DNA of 64,000 bases from Escherichia phage PSD2002: sequence record OK335775.1, one strand, 5' to 3'. Within the stretch, counting starts at the first letter, position 1. The number at the start of each line of letters is the position of its first letter. Below are positions 22,455 to 63,891 of this stretch, in pieces. The position numbers were made by a program, and so were the translations under genes. The notes below the pieces were generated by a model. That model did no database searches. It was not told where the DNA came from and saw only the letters and a list, made by a program, of their open reading frames with translations.

Positions 22455-23732
22455 TTTTTCTAAAGGCGGTAATTTTACGCCGAGATAAGAACTCAATTGA
22501 CTTTGATTAGCCATTTTGTCCATATCAGAACCATCAATAATGCGGGCTTCTTTATCGTCCTTAGCGACGGTATAAGGGTTTGCAGACAATGCATAACGAG
22601 CAAGCAATGCTACTGTAGGTTGTAAGCTTTCCGGGTCAACAATAACCTTAAATTCACCAACTGAAGTATCACCTTCTTCGTCAACCACATTCAAACCTTC
22701 CGTATAAGGCGCATAATATAAAGATGCGACCGTCTGTCCTTCACCCATCTGGGCATTTACACCAACAATAACATAATCACATGGACTATTCATATCAGCA
22801 TAAAGTGGTAGGCCATTCTTTAATATACCATAAGCCAATTCGTCCTGGTCTTCCTTTTTCTCAACCCAACCAGAGGCGGCGAGAATAGCAGCACAACGAG
22901 AACTAGCTACTGCATAAGTCCCGGCAAAAGAAGTCTGTCGTTGGACGGCAGAGTTCATCTCACACATATAATAATATAATGTGCGAGCACGGTCCTGGGC
23001 ATTATCGTAGCGAGGGTTGGTAAGGTCTAATACACCCTTTTCAGAAACACCCTGGACTTTAAAACGAGAGCTCACGGTAATTAATGACTGTAATACATCC
23101 TTATTAATTTCTTCTGCCATTTGAATGCCTAGCAGATTTTCAACAAAATTAGGAGCATTAAACCCGTTAGATTCTAGGTCTTGGGCTAATTCGACTGTCA
23201 ATGAAGTTTTCAGTTTACGTGATTTAACTTCAGATTGCCATTTGTCGATACGGAATCCGGTTTCAGCAATTTCAGGATGGCCTTGTTCAAATTTAGAAGT
23301 AATAGCAGCATCCGACACCATACGGATATGGCCGGCTGCCACTGCTTCAGAAATAACTTCGCTGAGGTTGGTTTCTGTGGTTCCGGCGAAAGGAGATGCT
23401 TCTAGAACTTTAAACACTACGCTTTCAAACTGGAACATATCACCGACCGCATAAGCTGTAGATGAATCAGTAAATTCTGGAATATTTTCACGTTCCGTCA
23501 TACCAATCTGGCCCGCAAATGTTGCTCCACCAAGATAAGTCATTTTGTCGTCAGGATTCAGTACACGTACCCCATACAGAGCAGCAACCGGTTGATTTGT
23601 TTTTTGTTCAGCAACTAGGGCTTTAAAGATTCGTTTATTAGTTGCTTGGGTGTATGAAAGAAGAGCAGGACGGCCAACCGAGCTGGCAGCCGTCAATGTG
23701 GATTCTTTAATTAGGTCTACAATCTTAGACAT
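22452..23732 (-). CDS. second, diverged gp24-like capsid vertex protein paralog
   Basis: 426 aa; alignable along full length to the adjacent gp24 ortholog, shared blocks KSRKLKT, TVELAQD, EINKDVLQSLITVS, RYALSANPYTVAKDDKEAR. Confidence 0.85.
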   Translation of the reverse strand: MSKIVDLIKESTLTAASSVGRPALLSYTQATNKRIFKALVAEQKTNQPVAALYGVRVLNPDDKMTYLGGATFAGQIGMTERENIPEFTDSSTAYAVGDMFQFESVVFKVLEASPFAGTTETNLSEVISEAVAAGHIRMVSDAAITSKFEQGHPEIAETGFRIDKWQSEVKSRKLKTSLTVELAQDLESNGFNAPNFVENLLGIQMAEEINKDVLQSLITVSSRFKVQGVSEKGVLDLTNPRYDNAQDRARTLYYYMCEMNSAVQRQTSFAGTYAVASSRCAAILAASGWVEKKEDQDELAYGILKNGLPLYADMNSPCDYVIVGVNAQMGEGQTVASLYYAPYTEGLNVVDEEGDTSVGEFKVIVDPESLQPTVALLARYALSANPYTVAKDDKEARIIDGSDMDKMANQSQLSSYLGVKLPPLEK

Positions 23733-25015
23733 TAATCAGCCTCGTAAATAATTGCCGGAAGTTTAACGCCAACCAGATAAGACATATTGCTCTGTCCAGC
23801 CATTAAATCCATATTGGTTGCATCGATAACACGAGCTTCTTTATCGTCTTTAGCCACGGTGTACGGGTTAGCTGATAGTGCATAACGAACCATCAGAGAA
23901 ATAGAAGGTTGTAATGAATCCGGGTCAACAATAACCTTATAAGCACCGACGTGTTCTTGGTCATCTAAATCTAAGCCTTCGGTATAGGGAGCGTAGAAAA
24001 TAGAACCGACAACTTCATTACCGCCGTAATTCTCTTTAACACCAACGGTAACATAATCTAATGGACTGTTAACGTCACAAAACAGAGGCAGACCATTCAA
24101 CAAATATCCGTATGCAGTTTCCGGAAGCCAATTATTATCTTCGGGTTTATGTTTTAACCAGCCAGAACCTGCAAGCATTGCAGCCACACGACTTGAAGCC
24201 ACAACAAACGTGCCAGAATAAGAAGTAGTTTTCTGGATTTCAGAATTCATCTCACAAACGAGTTCATAAAGTTTACGTGCAGATTCAGGAGCACTGTCAT
24301 AAGACAAATCGATGATGCCGTTATCAGATACACCAGTAACTTTATAACGTTTGGATACGGTTATTAGAGATTGCAGAACGTCTTTATTAATTTCATCTGC
24401 CATTACTGTAGCCAAGAGGTCTTCTAAGAACGCCGGCGCGTCAAAGCCATTTGATTCCATATCCTGCGCTAATTCTACAGTCAAAGCCGTCTTCAATTTA
24501 CGGGTCTTAACCGGAGCATTCCATTTATTAACCTGGAATACAGCATCAGAGATTTCTACATCACTCGCTTCAAATTTAGTGGTATGGGCAGCATCAGGAA
24601 CCAGACGACATGTTAATGACACTAAACCTTCTTGAAGAGCATCAGCCAATTCTGTGGCGCTAGTGGACGCGAGTGGGCTTGCTTTAAGAGCCTTATAAAC
24701 CACATTCTGGTACTTGAAATATTCACCCTGAGCAATCGCCTGGGCCTTATCTGTGAGTTCTGGGATAGTTTCACGGTCTTTAGAACCAACTTCACCACCA
24801 TAAGAGGCACCTGTCTGGAAACTAAATTCATTATCAGGGGTAAGATATTTGACACCATACAGTGCAGCAATAGGCTGGCTAGTACGTTGTTCGGCGATAA
24901 TATCACGGTAAATCAATTTGGTTGTAGCACGGGTCAAAGCAACAAGATTAGGGCGACCCAATGAGTTGCTGGAAGTAGTTGTTGACTCGCGCAGTAATTC
25001 GTTAATCTTTGCCAT
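23732..25015 (-). CDS. 24: capsid vertex protein gp24
   Basis: 427 aa; N-terminus MAKINELLRESTTT... and overall sequence closely resemble T4 gp24. Confidence 0.9.
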   Translation of the reverse strand: MAKINELLRESTTTSSNSLGRPNLVALTRATTKLIYRDIIAEQRTSQPIAALYGVKYLTPDNEFSFQTGASYGGEVGSKDRETIPELTDKAQAIAQGEYFKYQNVVYKALKASPLASTSATELADALQEGLVSLTCRLVPDAAHTTKFEASDVEISDAVFQVNKWNAPVKTRKLKTALTVELAQDMESNGFDAPAFLEDLLATVMADEINKDVLQSLITVSKRYKVTGVSDNGIIDLSYDSAPESARKLYELVCEMNSEIQKTTSYSGTFVVASSRVAAMLAGSGWLKHKPEDNNWLPETAYGYLLNGLPLFCDVNSPLDYVTVGVKENYGGNEVVGSIFYAPYTEGLDLDDQEHVGAYKVIVDPDSLQPSISLMVRYALSANPYTVAKDDKEARVIDATNMDLMAGQSNMSYLVGVKLPAIIYEAD

Positions 25016-25043: not shown

Positions 25044-25051
25044 TATTTATA
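25044..25051 (-). promoter_or_regulatory. late promoter TATAAATA upstream of gene 24
   Basis: Complement of TATTTATA, 28 nt upstream of the gp24 ATG. Confidence 0.5.
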
Positions 25052-25057
25052 AAAGTT

Positions 25058-25090
25058 GTTTACAGCAAGATTCTCACATGTTACTATAGA
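25058..25090 (+). promoter_or_regulatory. early promoter (GTTTACA ... TTACTATAG ... ATCAAAACA)
   Basis: Matches the conserved early-promoter core repeated at 59859, 60427 and 63031. Confidence 0.45.
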
Positions 25091-25116
25091 CATATCAAAA
25101 CATGAGGAGATTAAAA

Positions 25117-25383
25117 ATGAACAAGTTAAACTTTATTCGTACTACTCTTTCCGCTCTTGATAAAGACATCAAAGCTCTGGTAGAAAAATTCGGTAACAAT
25201 CCTAATGGTAATGCAGTGAATGCCTTAGTTAAGAAATACGAAGCCATGGCTTATGCTACCGACTTCTGGTGGAACGGTGAATACTCTACCCATACCAAAG
25301 ACAAATCTGGTAACTGGCTGAAAATCCAAGAAAATCGTATTGACTTCCGTGATATCATCAACCGTCGAGTTAAGATTGCATAG
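25117..25383 (+). CDS. hypothetical protein (88 aa), opposite strand between genes 23 and 24
   Basis: Track ORF 25102..25383 trimmed to ATG 6 nt after GAGGAGA; own early promoter; no recognisable motif. Confidence 0.5.
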   Translation: MNKLNFIRTTLSALDKDIKALVEKFGNNPNGNAVNALVKKYEAMAYATDFWWNGEYSTHTKDKSGNWLKIQENRIDFRDIINRRVKIA

Positions 25384-25432: not shown

Positions 25433-26992
25433 TTAGATACCTTTAACATATACACGACGGAAGTAACCATTCAGACCAAGGCTGTTAACGATGTCAGGCA
25501 TACCGCTCTGAATACGTTTGGTAGGAGCCTGTGCAGACGGGTCAGCGAACGGGTTGATACCGATACCGTAACGAGTTTTGAAGCCCATTACCGGTTGGAA
25601 GTTCTTCGGATCGGAACCACGCAGCGGGGTCAGTGCAACGTATGGAGCATAGTAGATACCTGCGTCCATTTCGTTAGCGCCTTTATAACCGATGGTGAAG
25701 TAATCGGAACGTGCATACTGGTCGATGTAAACGCGATATTTACCACCAAGAACACCGGCAAATACTGCTTTGGTTGTGTCAACGTTGAAACCTTGACCCA
25801 GACCTTGAGCTGCATAACTTACAGAAGTATCAACTGCAGCCAGTACGTTAACTACGTTACGGGAAGCGATGATGAAGTTACCAGCACCACGACCGGTCTG
25901 ACGAGCGATTTCGGCTGCTTCTTTATCAATCTGGAACAGAAGGGCTTTAAAGCTCTCACCGGCCCAACGAGCACCACGGATATCAATCGGGTCCTGGAAG
26001 TCAAACACACCAGCTTTAGCGCCAACGGTGTTGGTCATACCAGATTTACCAACCTGTGCAGAGTAGTTAATCCAATCGATAACTTCACGGTTGATTTCGA
26101 GCATAATTTCGGTAGCAAGGATACCGGACAGTTCAGCATCTGCATCCATACCGTGTACTGCACGAAGGTCCTGTGCCAGTTCGATAGAGTAGCTTGCTTT
26201 CAGCTGACGGGATTTAGCTTCGATAACTTGTTTGTCGATGCGGAAGCCCATTTCGTTCCACGGGTTATCGGTAGAACCGTTAAAGCCTTCCTGAAGTTCG
26301 GCGATAGAAGTAGCCATACCTTCAGCCAATTCAGCCAACTTACCAGCTTCAATCAAAGCGGTAACAGCAACATCCAGTTTAGCGGCATCAGTAGCAGCAG
26401 CATCAACGGTTACGGCTTCGACAGCCTGGAAGTGTGCAGCACCGGTAGCTTCGAAGAAGTGAGAATAAATTTTACCAACTTCCAGAACTTTGCTTGCAGC
26501 CAGTGCTTCGAAAGTTTCAGCAGCACCCTGACCAGAGAACATAGCGTCTGGAGAATACATCGGATGGAAAGCTTCTTTAGCGCCAGAAGCGATAGGGTCT
26601 TTACCATAAACTGCACGAAGGGCAAATACCTGGCCGGTAGGGTTATTCAGAGGCTGAACACCACAAATATCAAAAGCAATCAGATGAGGAATAGCACGAC
26701 GAACCATACCCATTACTGCCGGCCCAATCTGAGTTACAGCACCAGAAGTCTGGCCAGCTGCGATATTGGTAGCATCATAACCGTGGTCACCACCAATTTC
26801 AGCTTCGGTCAGGAAAGAACCAAATGCTTCAGAGATTTTTTCATCACGATATTCCGGAGCAGTCAGGATGTCTTGTTCCTGGTTTTCGAAAATTTTAGCG
26901 ATGATAGCTTGTTTAGAAGCACCCACGATTTCAGGAAGGGCTTCGTTTTCCAGCAGAGCGGACCATTTTTGAACTAATGCATTCTTTTTCAT
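25433..26992 (-). CDS. 23: major capsid protein gp23
   Basis: 519 aa; near-colinear with T4 gp23 as recalled (QAIIAKIFENQE...GSFLTEAEIGGDHGY...YYAPYVALTPLRGSDPKNFQPVMGFKTRYGIGINPF). Confidence 0.95.
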   Translation of the reverse strand: MKKNALVQKWSALLENEALPEIVGASKQAIIAKIFENQEQDILTAPEYRDEKISEAFGSFLTEAEIGGDHGYDATNIAAGQTSGAVTQIGPAVMGMVRRAIPHLIAFDICGVQPLNNPTGQVFALRAVYGKDPIASGAKEAFHPMYSPDAMFSGQGAAETFEALAASKVLEVGKIYSHFFEATGAAHFQAVEAVTVDAAATDAAKLDVAVTALIEAGKLAELAEGMATSIAELQEGFNGSTDNPWNEMGFRIDKQVIEAKSRQLKASYSIELAQDLRAVHGMDADAELSGILATEIMLEINREVIDWINYSAQVGKSGMTNTVGAKAGVFDFQDPIDIRGARWAGESFKALLFQIDKEAAEIARQTGRGAGNFIIASRNVVNVLAAVDTSVSYAAQGLGQGFNVDTTKAVFAGVLGGKYRVYIDQYARSDYFTIGYKGANEMDAGIYYAPYVALTPLRGSDPKNFQPVMGFKTRYGIGINPFADPSAQAPTKRIQSGMPDIVNSLGLNGYFRRVYVKGI

Positions 26993-57349: not shown

Positions 57350-57431
57350 TCTATTATCCCAGCCAGTTATTGAATGGAACAGACCTAGGACCATTATACA
57401 CTGTCTGGGACTTAAGCAATATAGGAACCCT

Positions 57432-58022
57432 ATGAACGGTTTATTTAACCAAACTAACACTACTAACTTTATCTTAGAGGTTAGTGACGCAGGAATGACG
57501 CAGGCATTCAAATTGAACGTACAAGATGTAACACTACCGGGTATCCATATTCCGGTCTCAGACGTCCCGGGATCGACCCAGGGCATACATCGTGCTAAGC
57601 TGCCAGGTTCTACGGTAGAATTCGATCCATTGATTGTGAACTTTCTTGTAGACCGTGAATTGAAATCATGGCTTGATGTTTATAAGTGGATGTTGTCATT
57701 AAACAACTATGTAACCCATGATTCAGAAGCCTGGCACCCTAAAGGACAACCGGAAGCTATCACCCTCCACATCCTTGATAACAACAAACAAAAAATCGTA
57801 ATGAGCATTCATTACTACGGTGGTTGGCCATCTGACCTCTCGGAAATCCAGTACTCTTATAAAGAGGATTCTGACCCGGCGATAATCGCCACAGCAACAT
57901 TCAACTTCAAATCGTTTGCTGTAGAAATAGATGGTACAATAGTTACAGGTCGTCCACAAATTGATTCGTATGCCGAACAACGAGTGGCTCGTATGTCTAT
58001 GCATCCATCTATGAGAAAATAA
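57432..58022 (+). CDS. 3: tail completion / sheath stabilizer gp3
   Basis: 196 aa; assignment by position between genes 2 and 1 only. Confidence 0.6.
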   Translation: MNGLFNQTNTTNFILEVSDAGMTQAFKLNVQDVTLPGIHIPVSDVPGSTQGIHRAKLPGSTVEFDPLIVNFLVDRELKSWLDVYKWMLSLNNYVTHDSEAWHPKGQPEAITLHILDNNKQKIVMSIHYYGGWPSDLSEIQYSYKEDSDPAIIATATFNFKSFAVEIDGTIVTGRPQIDSYAEQRVARMSMHPSMRK

Positions 58023-58772
58023 TGAAACTAATATCAATTGTAGGAATCAAACGTAGCGGTAAGGATACCGTTGCTAACTATGTAATCGAAAATATGGATT
58101 CGGTAAAATTTCAGCTCGCAGGTCCTATTAAAAAGTATCTGGCTGAAGCCTATGAATACATCTCTGATGACCCTGTATTCGACCGTAGTTACATGCCTAA
58201 ACTAGATTTTAACTGTTTTGAAGGTATCGGTTACGACCGTGAAGAAATCCTTCCTTTAAAACCAGATGATGTGATTGATATCTTTGAACATGCTATTGTC
58301 AAACTGAATAATATCCTTCCTATTCCAGGAATTGATACCGTAACTACGTATCATTATGGTCCTACCATTCAATATCTGTCTGAAGAAACAAAAGACCAAC
58401 TGTTTGAAGTAATAAATAAAAATAACAATTGGTCAGTACGTCGTCTCATGCAGACCCTTGGGACTGATATTATTGTTAACCAATTTGATAAGATGTATTG
58501 GGTTAAGTTGTTCGCTTTAGACTATTTTGATAAAATATACTCTGATGCGAAATACTATGTCGTACCTGATGTTCGTCAAACACACGAAATTGATTCGCTC
58601 AGAGCGATGGGTGCTACGATTATTCATGTAGTTCGCGCTGAAACCGGTCAAGTACAAGACTCGCACATCACTGAAGCGGGTCTACCAATTTTACCCGGTG
58701 ACGTTGTTATTGAAAATAACGGCACTCTTTCTGAACTATACACCACTATTGATAAATTATTAGGAAATAAAA

Positions 58773-58780
<8 letters not shown>
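58022..58780 (+). CDS. 1: deoxynucleoside monophosphate kinase gp1
   Basis: 252 aa; P-loop GIKRSGKDT near N-terminus; synteny. Confidence 0.8.
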
Positions 58781-59473
<693 letters not shown>

Positions 59474-59480
59474 GAACAAA

Positions 59481-59810
59481 ATGAAAACATATAACGAATT
59501 TGTACAAACTGAAGCAATTAATGAAGTAGCCATCCCTAAACCGGCTAAAGCTGACGGTACTGAGTACTACCATATTGAAACATCTTTTGATGCAGCTTCA
59601 GATATGGCTAACGGGCTTGGTGATTTCATCCGTCAAGCTAAGTCCGACCTGGCTAAATTTACAAAGACCCTTGATAAAGAGCAAAAGAAACCTTTCTCGG
59701 ATCTGGCTAAAAAACTGGACGCGTTAAATGACAAGGTCTTTAAAGAAGTTTACCACGGTATGATTGGTCTTACCCGTGAATTCAATGCTGAAGTTAAAAA
59801 ACTTCCCTAA
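59481..59810 (+). CDS. internal-protein-like gene 1 with capsid-targeting N-terminus (MKTYNEFVQTE...)
   Basis: N-terminus matches the T4 internal-protein capsid-targeting consensus MKTYQEFIAE; gp21-type (L/I)-x-E sites; position adjacent to 57B as T4 ipI. Confidence 0.7.
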   Translation: MKTYNEFVQTEAINEVAIPKPAKADGTEYYHIETSFDAASDMANGLGDFIRQAKSDLAKFTKTLDKEQKKPFSDLAKKLDALNDKVFKEVYHGMIGLTREFNAEVKKLP

Positions 59811-59820
59811 GTACAGATAA

Positions 59821-59841
59821 GGAGCCACAAAGCTCCTTTTT
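59821..59841 (+). terminator. stem-loop GGAGC-CACAAA-GCTCC + T5
   Basis: 5-bp GC-rich stem followed by TTTTT. Confidence 0.5.
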
Positions 59842-59858
59842 GTATCTAAACAAAAGGT

Positions 59859-59889
59859 GTTTACTTTCCTGGATAGCCGTGATACTATA
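59859..59889 (+). promoter_or_regulatory. early promoter cassette (GTTTAC ... TGATACTATAGCCCTATCAAAACAA)
   Basis: 32-nt core identical to the copy at 60443-60472. Confidence 0.55.
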
Positions 59890-59925
59890 GCCCTATCAAA
59901 ACAAACTAACCAAACGGAAATCAAA

Positions 59926-60150
59926 ATGAAAACTTATCAAGAATTTATTACCGAAGCTAAAAGACATGAAGATGAACTGCCAATTGTTACAAAAACCTTT
60001 GATGGCACACTGGCTGATTTTAAAAAAGTCCCTAGTGATAAGCTTGCTAAATTGACTGGCTCTATCAATGAAAAAGGTGGCAAGGTCACATTTTCTGCTC
60101 AAGGCACTGCCAATCTTAAAAAACTTTTGAAAGCCGCAGGCGTAGAATAA
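59926..60150 (+). CDS. internal-protein-like gene 2 (MKTYQEFITEAK...)
   Basis: Track ORF 59857..60150 begins at GTG inside the promoter; ATG at 59926 gives the MKTYQEF capsid-targeting N-terminus. Confidence 0.65.
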   Translation: MKTYQEFITEAKRHEDELPIVTKTFDGTLADFKKVPSDKLAKLTGSINEKGGKVTFSAQGTANLKKLLKAAGVE

Positions 60151-60151
60151 A

Positions 60152-60424
60152 ATGAAATCATACCAAGAATTTATCGCTGAATCTATTCTTAATGAAGAAG
60201 TAAAAATTAACAAATCTGTTAAGACCATGATTGATAATATAAATCATCTCTATAACATCGATTTGACTAATCACGTAACTTTAGGCAATAAGCGAAACTT
60301 TTTTGTATTTGATACTTCAGAACTTGACCAGAATCAAATTAACAATATTGAACGTTTTGCTAATGAAAAAGGGCTGCGCCACGAGACAGCCGGTTATAAA
60401 AAGTATGCAATTTATTTAAAATAA
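60152..60424 (+). CDS. internal-protein-like gene 3 (MKSYQEFIAESILNEE...)
   Basis: Capsid-targeting-like N-terminus with I-A-E and L-N-E gp21-type sites. Confidence 0.65.
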   Translation: MKSYQEFIAESILNEEVKINKSVKTMIDNINHLYNIDLTNHVTLGNKRNFFVFDTSELDQNQINNIERFANEKGLRHETAGYKKYAIYLK

Positions 60425-60426
60425 TT

Positions 60427-60457
60427 GTTTACAACGGGCTTTAGCCGTGATACTATA
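60427..60457 (+). promoter_or_regulatory. early promoter cassette (GTTTACA ... TGATACTATAGCCCTATCAAAACAA)
   Basis: Duplicate of the cassette at 59859-59903. Confidence 0.55.
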
Positions 60458-60492
60458 GCCCTATCAAAACAAATGAGTGAATGGAGAATAAA

Positions 60493-60678
60493 ATGAAACG
60501 TTGTGAATTAATTAGAAATGTTACTGCACTGGCCGCTGTTACTGCTTTTGGCTTTAGTATGTTTGCAGGATTCATGCTCGATATGCTTTCAACTTCCGAG
60601 AATATAATCTCTTTAGTAGTGGCATTTTTAATTGGTTCAATTTCTTTTGTTATGGATAAAATCTCTAAAGGTGAGTAA
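60493..60678 (+). CDS. small predicted membrane protein (two hydrophobic helices)
   Basis: Track ORF 60481..60678; ATG at 60493 follows GGAG; hydrophobic segments LAAVTAFGFSMFAGFML and [16 protein letters not shown]. Confidence 0.5.
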   Translation: MKRCELIRNVTALAAVTAFGFSMFAGFMLDMLSTSENIISLVVAFLIGSISFVMDKISKGE

Positions 60679-60679
60679 A

Positions 60680-61060
60680 ATGTATAAAGTGTATGCAGAT
60701 TATCAGGCAAATCCATCTGAAAAACCAGATTGTCAAATTGGGTGGGCACACGACACCCTGCTTAAGGCGGTAGATAAAGCCCAGGAATTAGGGTATAGTT
60801 ATGTGGATATTGTTCAACCCAATGGGACCGTTATTACACTTGAAGAATTCAAGAATATCAAAACAAACTTTTTGCTCTTTGCGGGTGATAACTATTACCC
60901 TCGTGGCGGTTATGCCGACTTAATCGCAAAGGCCGCTACTGAAGATGAACTGCGCGATATCATTAAAGAAAATGAGAATAACCCTCTTTACGGTTCTAAT
61001 CGTTTTGACTGGTGGCAGATTGTTAATGCCAATACCCATACTATTGTAGACGAGGGTTAA
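60680..61060 (+). CDS. hypothetical protein (126 aa)
   Basis: Track ORF 60632..61060 begins at TTG overlapping the previous gene; ATG at 60680 with AAAGGTGAG RBS. Confidence 0.5.
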   Translation: MYKVYADYQANPSEKPDCQIGWAHDTLLKAVDKAQELGYSYVDIVQPNGTVITLEEFKNIKTNFLLFAGDNYYPRGGYADLIAKAATEDELRDIIKENENNPLYGSNRFDWWQIVNANTHTIVDEG

Positions 61061-61351
61061 ATGTTATACGTTAAGGTTACTAATCCAGAGAATGGATATA
61101 ATTCAGACCAGGTTGCAGCAGAGCTACTGATTCGCAACTTTGGCAAAGGTGCTGTGCTTGATGTCCAACAGGTTAATATTGGTCGTAGTTCAAGCGACGT
61201 TAAACTAAAAGTTAACGGTCGCCGTTATAATTCTGTTAACTTTACTTTCTACACCGCAACTGAAAACGGGTTGGTCGAATACGACATCTTTAAAAATCCT
61301 TTGAAGATTGCTTCTATTAAACTTGATTACATTAATATGTGGCCACAATGA
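61061..61351 (+). CDS. hypothetical protein (96 aa)
   Basis: Track ORF, ATG start immediately after previous stop. Confidence 0.5.
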   Translation: MLYVKVTNPENGYNSDQVAAELLIRNFGKGAVLDVQQVNIGRSSSDVKLKVNGRRYNSVNFTFYTATENGLVEYDIFKNPLKIASIKLDYINMWPQ

Positions 61352-61525
61352 ACCAAATTTGACCAGACTATTCCTAAAAATAGTAATATGCTTTAAGAGT
61401 AATGTGTTATTATTACTCTATCATTAATACCCTCTATTACCAAAGGTTCTTCCCTCAAAGAACCTTTCATAATAGACAAGGTCTATTAATCAAACTTACT
61501 TTACTTAATTTTATTTGAGGTGTTT

Positions 61526-61792
61526 ATGTTAGTATTAAAATTAGCTTTTTATGACCCGGCAACCAAGACAACAACAACCAAACGTTGTTCTATTTCATAT
61601 GAATGTCAATTTGGTGAAGTTGAGACCGACGGCGGGCCCTTTATGGCAATTGCCGATAGCACATTCGCTAAACCAAAAATAATTCCACTAGTTAACGCTG
61701 CGGCTTATCTGGTTGCTCCTGAAGAAATGACTTATCACACAATTCAGCACATGGCTAAAGATGATAATGCTCCTGCTGGATTTGTAGTTTAA
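61526..61792 (+). CDS. hypothetical protein (88 aa)
   Basis: Track ORF 61520..61792 begins at GTG; ATG at 61526 follows GAGG. Confidence 0.5.
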   Translation: MLVLKLAFYDPATKTTTTKRCSISYECQFGEVETDGGPFMAIADSTFAKPKIIPLVNAAAYLVAPEEMTYHTIQHMAKDDNAPAGFVV

Positions 61793-61797
61793 ATTAA

Positions 61798-61874
61798 GGC
61801 CCTGTAGCTCAATGGTTAGCAGCAGTCCCCTCATAAGGGAAAGGTTACCAGTTCAAATCTGGTCCGGGTCACCA
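61798..61874 (+). tRNA. tRNA with CAU anticodon (Ile2 or Met), non-canonical D-stem
   Basis: Hand fold: acceptor GGCCCTG/CCGGGTC (one mismatch, one G-U), anticodon loop CTCATAA, T-arm ACCAG-TTCAAAT-CTGGT, encoded CCA. Confidence 0.6.
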
Positions 61875-61879
61875 ACTAT

Positions 61880-61954
61880 GTCCCGCTGGTGTAATGGATA
61901 GCATACGATCCTTCTAAGTTTGCGGTCCTGGTTCGATCCCAGGGCGGGATACCA
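61880..61954 (+). tRNA. tRNA-Arg (anticodon UCU)
   Basis: Hand fold: acceptor GTCCCGC/GCGGGAT, D-loop AATGGATA, anticodon loop CTTCTAA, T-arm CCTGG-TTCGATC-CCAGG, encoded CCA; T4 also encodes a tRNA-Arg(UCU). Confidence 0.75.
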
Positions 61955-62335
61955 AATGAAGACTATTATATAGTCAAGCCGTCGTATGAAGACTGATTAC
62001 CAGCATTCACCGGCGCAACAAACAAGAAACCGGGTCGCTACCGGTAAGTCGTCGGACTGATGTTCCCTGAGTAAGGACTGGCATTAACAAATCTTTACGA
62101 TCTGTTAACGTTCCCTTACATCACAGCAGAAACGGCGCACCGAATTATCGATTCGAGGAAATATCTTTGCCGTAAGCCGAGTAGCGTTTTTGACGGAACG
62201 TTCGGATATGGTCGAGATATGGCCTTTTAAAAATATTGAGTGGCGTCAACTACTTAATAACCGGGTTCGAATCCCGGCGTTTCGTACAAACACTTGCCTA
62301 GCAGGTGGAACCCCGACAAGGTTACCCTAGGTTAA
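61955..62335 (+). ncRNA. candidate stable small RNA(s) with tRNA-like T-arm (position of T4 rnaC/rnaD); boundaries uncertain
   Basis: About 380 nt with no ORF over 24 codons, immediately after tRNA-Arg and ending at a terminator; contains CCGGG-TTCGAAT-CCCGG at 62261-62277 and a possible 7-bp acceptor pairing 62194-62200 with 62278-62284. Confidence 0.3.
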
Positions 62336-62336
62336 A

Positions 62337-62364
62337 GGCCCTTCCGAAAGGTTGGGCTTTTTTT
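62337..62364 (+). terminator. terminator GGCCCTTCCGAAAGGTTGGGC + T7 (variant of the repeated element)
   Basis: GC stem plus T-run; copy of the motif at 16963 and 62980. Confidence 0.55.
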
Positions 62365-62365
62365 G

Positions 62366-62373
62366 TATAAATA
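62366..62373 (+). promoter_or_regulatory. late promoter TATAAATA upstream of internal-protein-like gene 4
   Basis: Exact TATAAATA 26 nt before the ATG at 62400. Confidence 0.5.
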
Positions 62374-62399
62374 TGTAGTAAACTAACTTAGGAAATAAT

Positions 62400-62864
62400 A
62401 TGAAAACTTACAATGAATTTTTGACTGAACAATCTAGTTCAGATGTAAAAGCCGCTGCTATTGCAGCAATTCAAGCAGGTAAATATTCTTACAAAGACGC
62501 CTCTGATGAAGAACGTTTCCGTTTTATTAAAGATTTTAAAGCCGAAGGTTTTACTAATGCTAATACTGTTAGCCGAGTTTTTAAAAGCCTAGCTGCATCA
62601 GGTGAATTGTTCCAGAAAGCTACAGGTAAAGCACCTGCGTCAAAAGCGGACCCTAAAGCCGCTCAAGAAAAAAATATCGCCAAAGGAATTATTTCTAAGT
62701 ATGAAGCAATTCTTAAAGAGCTTTTAGTAATCAAAACAGAAGGCCAGAAACTGGCACGAGCACATAGCTTCAAAGATAATCCACATGCTCACGACTTAGA
62801 GTATGTTGAAGATATTCAGAAAATCATCAAAGACCGTATCTGGTCTGCTAAACAAATCAAATAA
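62400..62864 (+). CDS. internal-protein-like gene 4 (MKTYNEFLTEQ...)
   Basis: Capsid-targeting-like N-terminus with L-T-E gp21-type site; late promoter. Confidence 0.65.
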   Translation: MKTYNEFLTEQSSSDVKAAAIAAIQAGKYSYKDASDEERFRFIKDFKAEGFTNANTVSRVFKSLAASGELFQKATGKAPASKADPKAAQEKNIAKGIISKYEAILKELLVIKTEGQKLARAHSFKDNPHAHDLEYVEDIQKIIKDRIWSAKQIK

Positions 62865-62866
62865 CG

Positions 62867-62888
62867 AAAGCCCCAGATGGGGCTTTTT
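62867..62888 (+). terminator. stem-loop AGCCCC-AGAT-GGGGCT + T5
   Basis: Perfect 6-bp stem followed by TTTTT directly after the stop codon. Confidence 0.6.
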
Positions 62889-62979
62889 GGTTAACTTAGA
62901 GAAATATATGAAACTTTTAAAATAAAGCTATGTTAGCCTTCCACATAAACCCATTCCGGTTCTACAAGAACTGATTCTA

Positions 62980-63007
62980 GGCCCTTCCGAAAGGTTGGGC
63001 CTTTTTT
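62980..63007 (+). terminator. terminator GGCCCTTCCGAAAGGTTGGGCC + T6 (repeated element)
   Basis: Identical to the element at 16963. Confidence 0.6.
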
Positions 63008-63030
63008 GTTTCTAAAAAGTTTAAAAAGTT

Positions 63031-63060
63031 GTTTACACCTCCTTTAAACATGATACTATA
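63031..63060 (+). promoter_or_regulatory. early promoter cassette (GTTTACA ... TGATACTATAGACCTATCAAAACAA)
   Basis: Third copy of the conserved early-promoter core. Confidence 0.55.
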
Positions 63061-63094
63061 GACCTATCAAAACAACAGAGTGAAGGAGAGTAAA

Positions 63095-63358
63095 ATGGAT
63101 AATTATGGTGAATTGTTTAATTTCTTTATGAAATGCGTTCCGGAAGAATTTGGTGCTACAGTTAACGATATTAAAGTTATCGGTCCTGAACACCCGGTGT
63201 ATGAAACCTATGCAGTAATGGGTAATGAAGATGGACAGTGGTATACAATTAAAGTTGTGATTAATATGTTCTCAGCTGAAGGTTACGCCAAATCGTCTAC
63301 CAAAGTTTACCATGGTAATGATTTTGATGCAGAAAATTATTTCAATAATATGAAATAA
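63095..63358 (+). CDS. hypothetical protein (87 aa)
   Basis: Track ORF 63080..63358 begins at GTG; ATG at 63095 follows GAAGGAGAG. Confidence 0.5.
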   Translation: MDNYGELFNFFMKCVPEEFGATVNDIKVIGPEHPVYETYAVMGNEDGQWYTIKVVINMFSAEGYAKSSTKVYHGNDFDAENYFNNMK

Positions 63359-63361
63359 AAC

Positions 63362-63397
63362 GTTTACATGGGCTCATGATTAAGATATTATGAGCCC
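63362..63397 (+). promoter_or_regulatory. early promoter (GTTTACA, 17-bp spacer, TATTAT) with 8-bp inverted repeat across spacer and -10
   Basis: GGGCTCAT at 63370-63377 pairs with ATGAGCCC at 63390-63397. Confidence 0.45.
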
Positions 63398-63416
63398 ATA
63401 ATTTGAGGAGAACATA

Positions 63417-63815
63417 ATGAATATCGAAGATAAAGAAATGCAAGAGTTGTATAATTCATTAACACCTGAACAACAAAAATATGCCAAAGAACTAGAGAAA
63501 GCTCTTACTTTCAACTTGGCAAAAACTGATTGGGCCGCGATGTATGAAGAAAAAACTAGATTAGAAATTGAAGCTGCTGAGAGAAATGAATGGGTTGTCG
63601 AAACCAAGATTTCTGATGGTGGTTGCTCTGTTGAGGTGTCAGCTGTAGTTAAAGGTACCCATGGCGAAAAATCATGGGGCTGGCATAATGAAGCAAACAA
63701 ATGTATTGTTCTCTCAACGTCAAAAACTTATGGGCAAAGGGCTCCTGTATCCAAAGCTATTATTAAGCAAGCTCAATGGGAAGCCAATGAAATTTGCCTC
63801 GCAAAAATGAAATAA
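63417..63815 (+). CDS. hypothetical protein (132 aa)
   Basis: Track ORF with ATG and GAGGAG RBS; no recognisable motif. Confidence 0.5.
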   Translation: MNIEDKEMQELYNSLTPEQQKYAKELEKALTFNLAKTDWAAMYEEKTRLEIEAAERNEWVVETKISDGGCSVEVSAVVKGTHGEKSWGWHNEANKCIVLSTSKTYGQRAPVSKAIIKQAQWEANEICLAKMK

Positions 63816-63819
63816 AAAT

Positions 63820-63855
63820 GTTTACAACCCTCAGAGGACAGGGTATAATGTCCTC
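63820..63855 (+). promoter_or_regulatory. early promoter (GTTTACA, 17-bp spacer, TATAAT) with 7-bp inverted repeat flanking the -10
   Basis: GAGGACA at 63834-63840 pairs with TGTCCTC at 63849-63855. Confidence 0.45.
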
Positions 63856-63891
63856 ATGGATTATAAATCTTAATCAACTGAAGGAAATACT

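Follow-up and report, generated by a model that had tools for sequence, protein, structure and literature searches.

How do small genes enter and leave the internal-protein locus of T4-type phages as units that can be expressed at once? The question is raised by a 64,000-nucleotide stretch of Escherichia phage PSD2002 (sequence record OK335775.1), which we call the window and which comes from a T4-type coliphage of the genus Dhakavirus (JS98/QL01/WG01/E33 group). Between its genes 57B and trna.4, two copies of one 32-nt block lie on either side of a pair of internal-protein genes. A previous sequence-only reading had described these blocks as parts of stem-loop-plus-early-promoter cassettes that serve as a substrate for gene shuffling, an idea that is supported by the gene content of relatives and by cassettes conserved at module boundaries. 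Our answer, to which we assign a probability of roughly 0.8, is that promoter and terminator cassettes act as homology patches for module shuffling in this locus.

The 32-mer TAGCCGTGATACTATAGCCCTATCAAAACAAA was found exactly twice, both times on the + strand, at 59874-59905 and 60442-60473. The duplicated block of the sequence-only reading is thus real, and its coordinates (59874-59903 and 60443-60472) were 1-2 nt off. No match was obtained in 100 dinucleotide-preserving shuffles, even with 3 mismatches permitted. The features around the two copies are listed below.

59481..59810, + strand: IP109 internal-protein gene, 109 aa, leader MKTYNEFVQTEAINE (PHROG 7857 'internal virion protein', E = 1.4e-24)
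59811..59845 (core 59819-59838), + strand: terminator-like hairpin T1 after IP109, core AAGGAGC...GCTCCTT then TTTTTG (terminator scan, RNA fold)
59847..59911, + strand: predicted early promoter cassette Pe1, with -35 at 59859-59864, 18-nt spacer, TGn, -10 at 59883-59888 and start region ...CCTATCAAAACAAA
59926..60150, + strand: Ip8-like internal-protein gene, 74 aa, MKTYQEFITE/AK (PHROG 8765 'internal virion protein', E = 2e-27)
60152..60424, + strand: Ip9-like internal-protein gene, 90 aa, MKSYQEFIAE/S (PHROG 7673 'internal head protein', E = 6.5e-56)
60415..60479, + strand: predicted early promoter cassette Pe2, with -35 at 60427-60432, -10 at 60451-60456 and copy 2 of the 32-mer
60493..60678, + strand: trna.4 homologue, 61-aa predicted membrane protein, the gene that Pe2 would serve (PHROG 1692, E = 3e-33)

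The GTTTAC motif that had been reported before each copy stands 9 nt upstream of it, and each 32-mer contains the -10 hexamer TACTAT preceded by TGn. Pe1 and Pe2 both have 18-nt spacers. Each copy also lies just 5' of a small gene, as previously noticed: the Ip8-like gene (ATG 59926) follows copy 1 and trna.4 (ATG 60493) follows copy 2. By these sequence features, the 32-nt blocks are the predicted cores (about -16 to +17) of two T4-type early promoters, which have been described as having a UP/-35/TGn/-10 organization (PMC2988021). The published promoter consensus of the T4/PST type of PeSL (promoter-early stem-loop) elements is TTTACW-N17-TAYWAT (PMC4122927), and the window promoters match it. 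With the spacer widened here to 17-18 nt, the pattern GTTTAC-N17/18-TAYWAT has seven matches in the window against 0.16 expected (8528, 25058, 59859, 60427, 63031, 63362 and 63820), all on the + strand, which is the early-transcription strand. Note that a generic sigma-70 scan under-calls these promoters (each scored 9 of 12) because their -35 is GTTTAC, and a group-specific pattern is needed. As in published PeSLs, an A/T-rich stretch precedes the -35 (...ctaaacaaaaggt GTTTAC and ...ttatttaaaataatt GTTTAC), and the -10 is followed by GGA(A/G) motifs, the ribosome-binding site, and then by the ATG of a small gene 38-41 nt downstream. For the 21-nt core TACTATAGMCMTATCAAAACA, 4 copies were counted where 0.01 would be expected, the two further ones at 63054 and 25082. 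The recurrences that had been called near-identical cassettes (63031-63075 and 25058-25102) are therefore real, and the near-identity holds for this core only; the copy at 63042-63084 shows 86% identity over 43 nt, and the spacers are wholly different.

We next compared the homologous locus in 13 Dhakavirus genomes and the window. The region 59000-63500 matched 922 phage records, the top one being Escherichia phage vB_EcoM-E33 (98.6% identity, 88% query coverage). The gene content between 57B and trna.4 varies among these 14 genomes, as the proposal of exchangeable modules had led one to look for:

window: IP109, Ip8-Ip9
E33: IP109 only
QL01, UGJNEcP3, 005, PSD9, LHE83, KIT01 and AnYang: Ip8-Ip9
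WG01: 69-aa internal protein (IP)-like open reading frame (ORF), Ip8-Ip9, Ip7
IME341: 69-aa ORF, Ip8-Ip9
MX01: Ip9, Ip7
fDHCT2: Ip9 only
JS98: two unannotated IP-like ORFs

The JS98 interval (L003 2968-3625) comprises 650 unannotated nt with the ORFs VKSYKEFLTEAME... (76 aa) and MKTYQEFIKESTDL... (97 aa). None of 50,697 phage genomes covered at least 80% of the window's 57B-trna.4 interval.

The closest relative, E33, has a single 32-mer and lacks the 536 nt (Ip8 and Ip9) that separate the two copies of the window. It is homologous to the window over 58700-59905 and again from 60442 on, with an overlap of exactly 32 nt between the two E33 segments (L001 3372-3403), giving the single-copy junction ...GGATAGCCGTGATACTATAGCCCTATCAAAACAAATGAGTGA...; the ends of this indel are thus the 32-nt repeat itself. 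The metagenome contig OERM01001946.1, the sole match among JGI metagenomes, has the same single-copy form. Both promoters of the window are chimeric. Pe1 is identical to the E33 promoter as far as 59905 (...CAAAACAAA) and thereafter to the 5' untranslated region (UTR) of QL01 Ip8, and Pe2 is identical to the trna.4 promoter of QL01 as far as ...GGGCTTTAG and thereafter to the E33-type CCGTGATACTAT.... No phage record matched the Pe2 junction in full, the best full-length match being 93.8%. On both sides, the backbone shares 98-99.7% identity with E33, and Ip8-Ip9 has its best matches in QL01 and PSD9 (97.3-97.5% identity). The combination IP109+Ip8+Ip9 and either chimeric junction were absent elsewhere in the 50,697 phage records, IMG/VR and JGI metagenomes.

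Similar junctions were found further along the locus, where the following features are needed.

62334..62366, + strand: putative terminator TA after the tRNA/rnaD/rnaC block, copy 1 of a duplicated 31-nt terminator (fold -15.1 kcal/mol, z = -2.8)
62400..62864, + strand: IP154, an IP-like gene with leader MKTYNEFLTE/Q (PHROG 2280, function unknown, E = 6e-53)
62862..62893, + strand: putative terminator TB after IP154, AAAGCCCC-AGAT-GGGGCTTTTT (fold -15.8 kcal/mol, z = -4.4)
62979..63012, + strand: putative terminator TA', duplicate of TA, immediately 5' of Pe3 (fold -16.0 kcal/mol, z = -3.0)
63019..63082, + strand: predicted early promoter cassette Pe3 for e.8 (ATG 63095), with -35 at 63031-63036, 17-nt spacer and -10 at 63054-63059
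63350..63414, + strand: predicted early promoter cassette Pe4, with -35 at 63362 and -10 TATTAT at 63386-63391
63808..63872, + strand: predicted early promoter cassette Pe5, with -35 at 63820 and -10 TATAAT at 63844-63849

Phage 005 lacks 63369-63803 (435 nt), the gene between Pe4 and Pe5, and the junction lies in the shared ATGAAATAAAA..GTTTACA; Pe4 is the left and Pe5 the right boundary of this indel. In MX01, Ip8 was lost via a crossover between the Ip8 and Ip9 leaders, and in fDHCT2, 57B is joined directly to the Ip9 gene. In JS98 and WG01, the homology to the window reaches no further than the first 38 nt of IP109. IP154 is absent from PSD9, MX01, KIT01, JS98, AnYang and LHE83, and the breakpoints 62405 and 62424 fall inside its leader. 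A repeated UTR, AACTTAGGAAATAATATGAAA, precedes IP154 and also the next ORF. The homology of JS98, KIT01 and AnYang begins at 63014, beside TA' and Pe3, and the Pe3 spacer exists as two alleles that reassort independently of both flanks. In T4, Kanagawavirus, Moonvirus and other genera, homologous promoter cassettes are found at these module boundaries too, including a cassette 5' of trna.4 in T4, IME523, CF1 and IMG/VR genomes.

The terminator side of the cassettes was then considered. The hairpin that had been reported before the first copy is present: T1 folds at -15.4 kcal/mol (z = -5.3), with 0/200 shuffles as stable, and IME523 likewise has a hairpin and T-run after its IP109 homologue. 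The description of the pair as a duplicated terminator does not hold, since no terminator was found 5' of copy 2, where 60360-60430 folds at z = -0.17; a hidden terminator before Pe2 was rejected on the same fold, and in this pair the promoter alone is duplicated. Four G+C-rich hairpins, each directly followed by a T-run (z = -2.8 to -5.3), have the form of intrinsic terminators, namely 59819-59838 with TTTTTG, 62338-62361 with TTTTTTT, 62869-62884 with TTTTT and 62979-63002 with TTTTTT. A duplicated terminator, which the sequence-only reading did not contain, does exist elsewhere, at 62336-62366 and 62979-63009 (31 nt, 97% identical), and it brackets IP154 and the remnant of another ORF. An upstream stem-loop is thus present at Pe1 and Pe3, and none was found at Pe2, Pe4 or Pe5.

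Given these sequences, we propose the following course of events. Pe1 and Pe2 would be strong promoters for host sigma-70, of the UP/-35/TGn/-10 type, and would start transcription of Ip8-Ip9 and of trna.4, respectively, immediately after infection, while the T1 hairpin would end the upstream 57B-IP109 transcription unit. A promoter, together with a terminator where one is present, would make each module an insulated and immediately expressed unit. Promoter cores, terminators and the first ~30-40 nt of every internal-protein gene, which encode the capsid-targeting leader, could serve as portable homology patches: they are short sequences repeated along the locus and shared between phages and genera, and therefore offer homology for general recombination. 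The very active general recombination system of the phage would cross over at such patches, either inside one genome or between phages that infect the same cell, and would carry whole, already-regulated gene modules in or out. The window would then hold a QL01/PSD9-type Ip8-Ip9 module in an E33-type backbone, between two copies of the E33 promoter core. From the sequences compared, this module either was inserted into an E33-type genome or was lost from E33 and the matching contig by recombination between the 32-nt repeats. The 32-nt direct repeat predicts that Ip8-Ip9 is easily lost.

The distribution of breakpoints was examined in the same region. Fourteen of 29 breakpoint clusters lie in promoter cassettes, terminators or internal-protein start/leader windows, which make up 13.5% of the region (binomial p = 7e-6, a value that is indicative only, as the elements were partly defined after inspection and the null was uniform). 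Within 59471-60442, all 10 clusters lie in Pe1, Pe2 or the start/leader windows, of which 59470-59525 includes the end of 57B. Crossover points were located at 59852, 59873 and 59905 in Pe1 and at 60418, 60432 and 60442 in Pe2. As expected of PeSLs in hyperplastic regions, the cassettes stand at the boundaries of indels and replacements (the E33 and 005 indels; breakpoints 59852, 59873, 60418, 60432 and 63014). Judged from these alignments, three kinds of short repeats appear to be used as crossover points, namely promoters, internal-protein leader codons and terminator/UTR repeats, and the scatter of crossover points within cassettes fits general recombination and argues against site-specific recombination.

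The limits of the binomial test are one of several points that weigh against homology patches as the cause. Copy 2 has no stem-loop and is an incomplete PeSL, a form that has been called a 'degraded' or 'half' PeSL (Comeau 2014, PMC4122927). Within this 5-kb region, several indels are not mediated by cassettes: an internal deletion of 486 nt (62923/62924) in a 184-aa membrane-protein ORF, common to fDHCT2 and IME341, with microhomology of at most 3 nt; the insertion of ORF138 at 61378-61386, a 430-nt ORF in JS98 and UGJNEcP3 ~50 nt 5' of a hairpin at 61433-61476; homing-endonuclease insertions at 61871-61880 beside tRNA-Met; and a 144-nt indel of rnaC (62144/62289). In addition, a single reciprocal crossover alone leaves unexplained why both copies are E33-like over all 32 nt, and either history calls for an unsampled donor or for one additional step (gene conversion or mismatch repair). 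Finally, gene-boundary breakpoints are also expected from selection alone, as only viable products survive. As a separate observation, the remnant of the 184-aa ORF (62907-62975) consists of MKLLK-stop and the last ~52 nt, and the ORF is intact in E33, QL01, PSD9 and JS98.

The selection argument belongs to the alternative that survives best, although we regard it as improbable. It holds that the repeats are simply two constrained, strong early promoters and that boundaries coincide with them since indels cutting genes are lost, the cassettes being non-causal. In its favour, most promoters of the locus share the -35, TGn, -10 and start region CCTATCAAAACA, also between genera, many breakpoints fall at any gene boundary (e.g., 59472 at the 57B stop), and the non-cassette indels described above occur too. 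However, the 32-nt identity extends to positions of the spacer and start region at which orthologous promoters differ freely (CCGTGA versus TGATGG, TGGTGA or GCATGA; AGCCC versus AGACC). It exceeds what promoter constraint accounts for and points to recent common descent of both copies. Both promoters are also chimeric, with switch points inside the cassette; the E33 and 005 junctions lie inside shared sequence to the nucleotide, as homology-guided exchange predicts; and constraint does not predict the independent reassortment of the Pe3 spacer alleles. Note that common descent of the copies by a 568-bp tandem duplication was rejected, as the sequences after the two copies are unrelated beyond the promoter core and the internal-protein leader.

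An assembly chimera, in which E33-like and QL01-like reads were joined across the shared promoter repeat, is a good deal less probable still. It would account for a gene combination and chimeric junctions that are unique in the databases searched, and for two parts that resemble two known phage types. Nevertheless, the parental types share only 14 exact nt at the Pe1 junction (CCTATCAAAACAAA) and only TAG at the Pe2 junction, lengths far below assembler k-mer sizes, and an assembly artefact is therefore unlikely. Furthermore, Ip8-Ip9 falls short of its best matches by differences of its own (97.3-97.5% identity), and mosaicism, which is usual in real T4-type genomes, is seen at the ORF555 deletion and the Pe3 allele too. 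A dedicated enzyme, whether an integron-like site-specific recombinase acting on the cassette or a homing endonuclease whose cut leads to co-conversion of flanking modules, deserves as little credence, for although homing-endonuclease genes lie near the locus (at genes 2/3 in E33 and QL01; beside tRNA-Met in LHE83, AnYang and IME341), T4 has segB, whose product is reported to drive preferred inheritance of the T4 tRNA region (PMC2330249), and a stem-loop-binding recombination protein has been suggested (Arbiol 2010, PMC2839356), the window has no endonuclease or recombinase gene at 55.3-64 kb, so that homing-endonuclease involvement within it was rejected, and the crossovers spread over ~50 nt per cassette and occur also in leaders and UTR repeats, unlike a fixed site.

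Returning to homology-guided exchange, one specific history may be outlined. PeSL pairs excise as mini-circles in RB49 and phi1 (PMC2839356), and a Campbell-type integration could have left the two 32-nt copies as its scars, one on the left and one on the right. In this history, a promoter-bearing Ip8-Ip9 mini-circle, excised from a QL01-like phage between the Ip8 and trna.4 promoters, entered the single promoter of an E33-like phage. The left half of Pe2 (the part from the QL01 trna.4 promoter) and the right half of Pe1 (the Ip8 5'UTR) are what such a mini-circle would carry. We put this forward tentatively, as a possibility on the short side of even odds; a window-type ancestor that came first, with E33 as its deletion derivative, fits equally well. 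If the integration is true, the window would be a natural intermediate of the PeSL mini-circle transfer cycle, of which so far only excision in the laboratory is known.

The modules in question consist largely of internal-protein genes. Four genes have the capsid-targeting leader of internal proteins: IP109 (MKTYNEFVQTEAINE, MKTYNEF..), Ip8 (MKTYQEFITE), Ip9 (MKSYQEFIAE) and IP154 (MKTYNEFLTE), which compare with MKTYQEFIAE of T4 IPIII, as translated from the T4 record. The leader is closed by a site for the prohead protease, L/I-x-E (gp21 specificity). Its role in internal proteins has been described (PMC3012670, PMC12373910). Three of the four match PHROGs of internal virion or head proteins (7857, 8765, 7673); IP154, besides PHROG 2280, has a weak match of its N-terminal leader to IP family 7857 only. 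Their position agrees with that of known internal-protein genes, beside 57B and trna.4 in the same order as T4 57B-ipI-trna.4, and existing record annotations include Ip8 in QL01 and VR5, Ip9 in QL01, WG01 and MX01, and trna.4 in JS98 and T4. IP109 starts 8 nt past the stop of 57B/Acb1 and has no promoter of its own. It is rare, being found among the 50,697 phage records only in E33 (99.7%), Enterobacter phage IME523 (83%, Kanagawavirus) and Citrobacter phage CF1 (76%, Moonvirus). Ip9 begins 1 nt after Ip8 in the same transcription unit, and the GTTTAC of Pe2 begins 3 nt past the Ip9 stop.

Internal proteins are injected with the DNA, and in T4 each disarms a specific GmrSD-type restriction enzyme; T4 Ip1-3 are the only internal proteins with known targets, the GmrSD enzymes (PMC12373910). 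The neighbouring 57B (59018-59473) was identified as the anti-CBASS nuclease Acb1 (Pfam PF23474, E = 1e-58), so that Acb1 and the adjoining internal-protein genes together make the locus an anti-defence island, the content of which helps set host range. Note that 57B, which abuts the internal-protein genes, is labelled 'RNA ligase' in many records. In the Pfam search only 57B was matched, and the internal proteins and small ORFs gave no match.

The locus reads in the early-transcription direction. On the + strand, gene 4, gene 2, gene 3 (57432-58022) and gene 1 for dNMP kinase (58022-58780) are followed by 57A (58773-59018), 57B and the internal-protein genes, and these by trna.4, trna.3, trna.2, tRNA-Met, tRNA-Arg, rnaD, rnaC, the IP-like gene and e.8, which is the T4 order 1-57A-57B-ipI-trna.4...e.8. 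The gap between genes 2 and 3 is 82 nt in the window (57350-57431); a homing-endonuclease gene lies there in E33 (L001 212-862) and QL01 (L002 197-847). Rfam recognized two tRNAs as the only matches in 59-64 kb, and rnaC and rnaD were recognized solely via comparison with T4. The rnaD homologue (62025-62141) is 87% and the rnaC homologue (62148-62286) 98.6% identical to T4, the latter far exceeding the locus average, and the 144-nt segment absent from JS98, 005, IME341, MX01 and AnYang is exactly rnaC. For the 5' half of trna.3 (60680-60878) there are two diverged alleles. The window shares 99% identity with E33 and, over the full gene, 87-92% with fDHCT2, 005 and UGJNEcP3, and in the other eight relatives only about half of the gene aligns, at 85-90%. 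Homology breaks at 60703-60721 and 60875-60878 delimit a replacement patch with intragenic endpoints. Downstream of trna.2, the hairpin at 61433-61476 is a 19-bp near-perfect stem (-19.6 kcal/mol, z = -5.7) without a T-run.

A related early promoter, again predicted, stands far from the locus.

25046..25102, + strand: related early promoter cassette, by core and pattern match, for an 88-aa ORF (25117-25383)

This ORF lies between late genes 24 (23732-25015) and 23 (25433-26992), which are on the opposite strand, and with its own predicted early promoter it is a small early-gene insertion in the core structural block.

In many early promoters of the locus, the spacer holds one arm of an inverted repeat whose second arm begins within the -10 or directly behind it, so that the -10 would lie in a hairpin loop. 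A perfect repeat of at least 7 bp was present in 13 of 24 promoter families (shuffle p ≤ 0.03 each; Fisher 1e-14, for families that are not fully independent), and the arms covary between promoters and genera. The arms are 14 bp in the T4 ipII promoter and 10 bp each in the T4 ipI, QL01 Ip8 and window Pe4 promoters, and genomes L021, L023 and L026 have 8-bp arms with GTGTAC as -35. Repeats were located at 63368-63399 (Pe4), 63832-63855 (Pe5) and 25073-25112 in the window, at L002 2986-3040 and at L005 4135-4190, and in T4 (L016) at ipI, ipII, ipIII, trna.4 and e.7. The 10-bp repeat of Pe4, ATGGGCTCAT/ATGAGCCCAT, spans the -10 (fold -20.1 kcal/mol, z = -5.6), and its orthologues show two compensatory pairs, with changes in AnYang, T4 and L027. 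The inverted repeat is missing from Pe1 (z = 0.1) and Pe3 (z = 0.5); the chimeric Pe1 has lost the strong hairpin that the QL01 Ip8 promoter forms (z = -6.4). In the spacer at 59871-59876, E33 and the window have ...GGATAGCCGTGA versus ...GAGGGCTATGA in CF1 (L015 3842 promoter), and their ATAGCC is the reverse complement of the CF1 arm GGCTAT, so that the CF1 inverted repeat has become a direct repeat; judged from the alignment, this could be a template-switch event or coincidence. In a second geometry (window 25058; genomes L031, L034, L035 and L037), the spacer is paired with the ribosome-binding site, which would mask translation only on read-through transcripts. As ideas only, the -10 hairpins might mark or mask read-through transcripts, protect upstream mRNA 3' ends, or promote recombination, and they may be the 'variable A/T-rich stem-loops' that secondary accounts attribute to Repoila 1994.

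How the locus compares with known systems may now be stated. The closest are the PeSLs of RB49/phi1 (Arbiol 2010, PMC2839356) and of T4/PST and KVP40/nt-1 (Comeau 2014, PMC4122927), with which the cassettes share the A/T stretch, early promoter, ribosome-binding site and small-gene start, the upstream terminator stem-loop at Pe1 and Pe3, hyperplastic clustering, and a position at indel or replacement boundaries between close relatives; two tandem copies around a small module are also the geometry shown to yield mini-circles. They differ in that Pe2, Pe4 and Pe5 have no upstream stem-loop, that the polyG/polyC stems are of the RB49/phi1 type and not the window's, and that many promoters here have an inverted repeat inside the promoter, spanning the -10. 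Promoter, terminator and mini-circle activity are experimental results in RB49/phi1, whereas the window was read from sequence. The elements of the T-even internal-protein locus (Repoila et al. 1994, EMBO J 13:4181, as reported in PMC2839356 and PMC4122927) lie, according to those reports, in the same locus, from 57B to trna.4 and also near e, with internal proteins sharing only the N-terminal capsid-targeting leader, and with T4 early promoters and variable A/T-rich stem-loops, for which shuffling of the set was proposed. Dhakavirus has a different set (IP109, Ip8, Ip9, IP154), and the one-versus-two 32-mer copies and the chimeric promoters are specific to the window.

T4 deletions and amplifications at short homologies (Srikant et al. 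2022, PMC9391042) likewise delete or duplicate by direct repeats, leaving one repeat at the junction, and include loss of ipIII with host-range consequences; those are 6-10-bp chance microhomologies, whereas a 32-nt functional promoter core at module boundaries would be used here. Integron gene cassettes flanked by attC are also small, promoter-served adaptive genes exchanged as units between short structured repeats, but the locus has no integrase and no fixed crossover, and each module has its own promoter, so this is an analogy only. The locus matches the published model of PeSLs and the T-even internal-protein locus: it is a clean Dhakavirus example with no new mechanism, and it adds support to an existing model without revealing a new one. 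What it provides is a single-nucleotide view of anti-defence genes gained or lost as units ready for expression, in a genus whose members are widely isolated for use in therapy and biocontrol.

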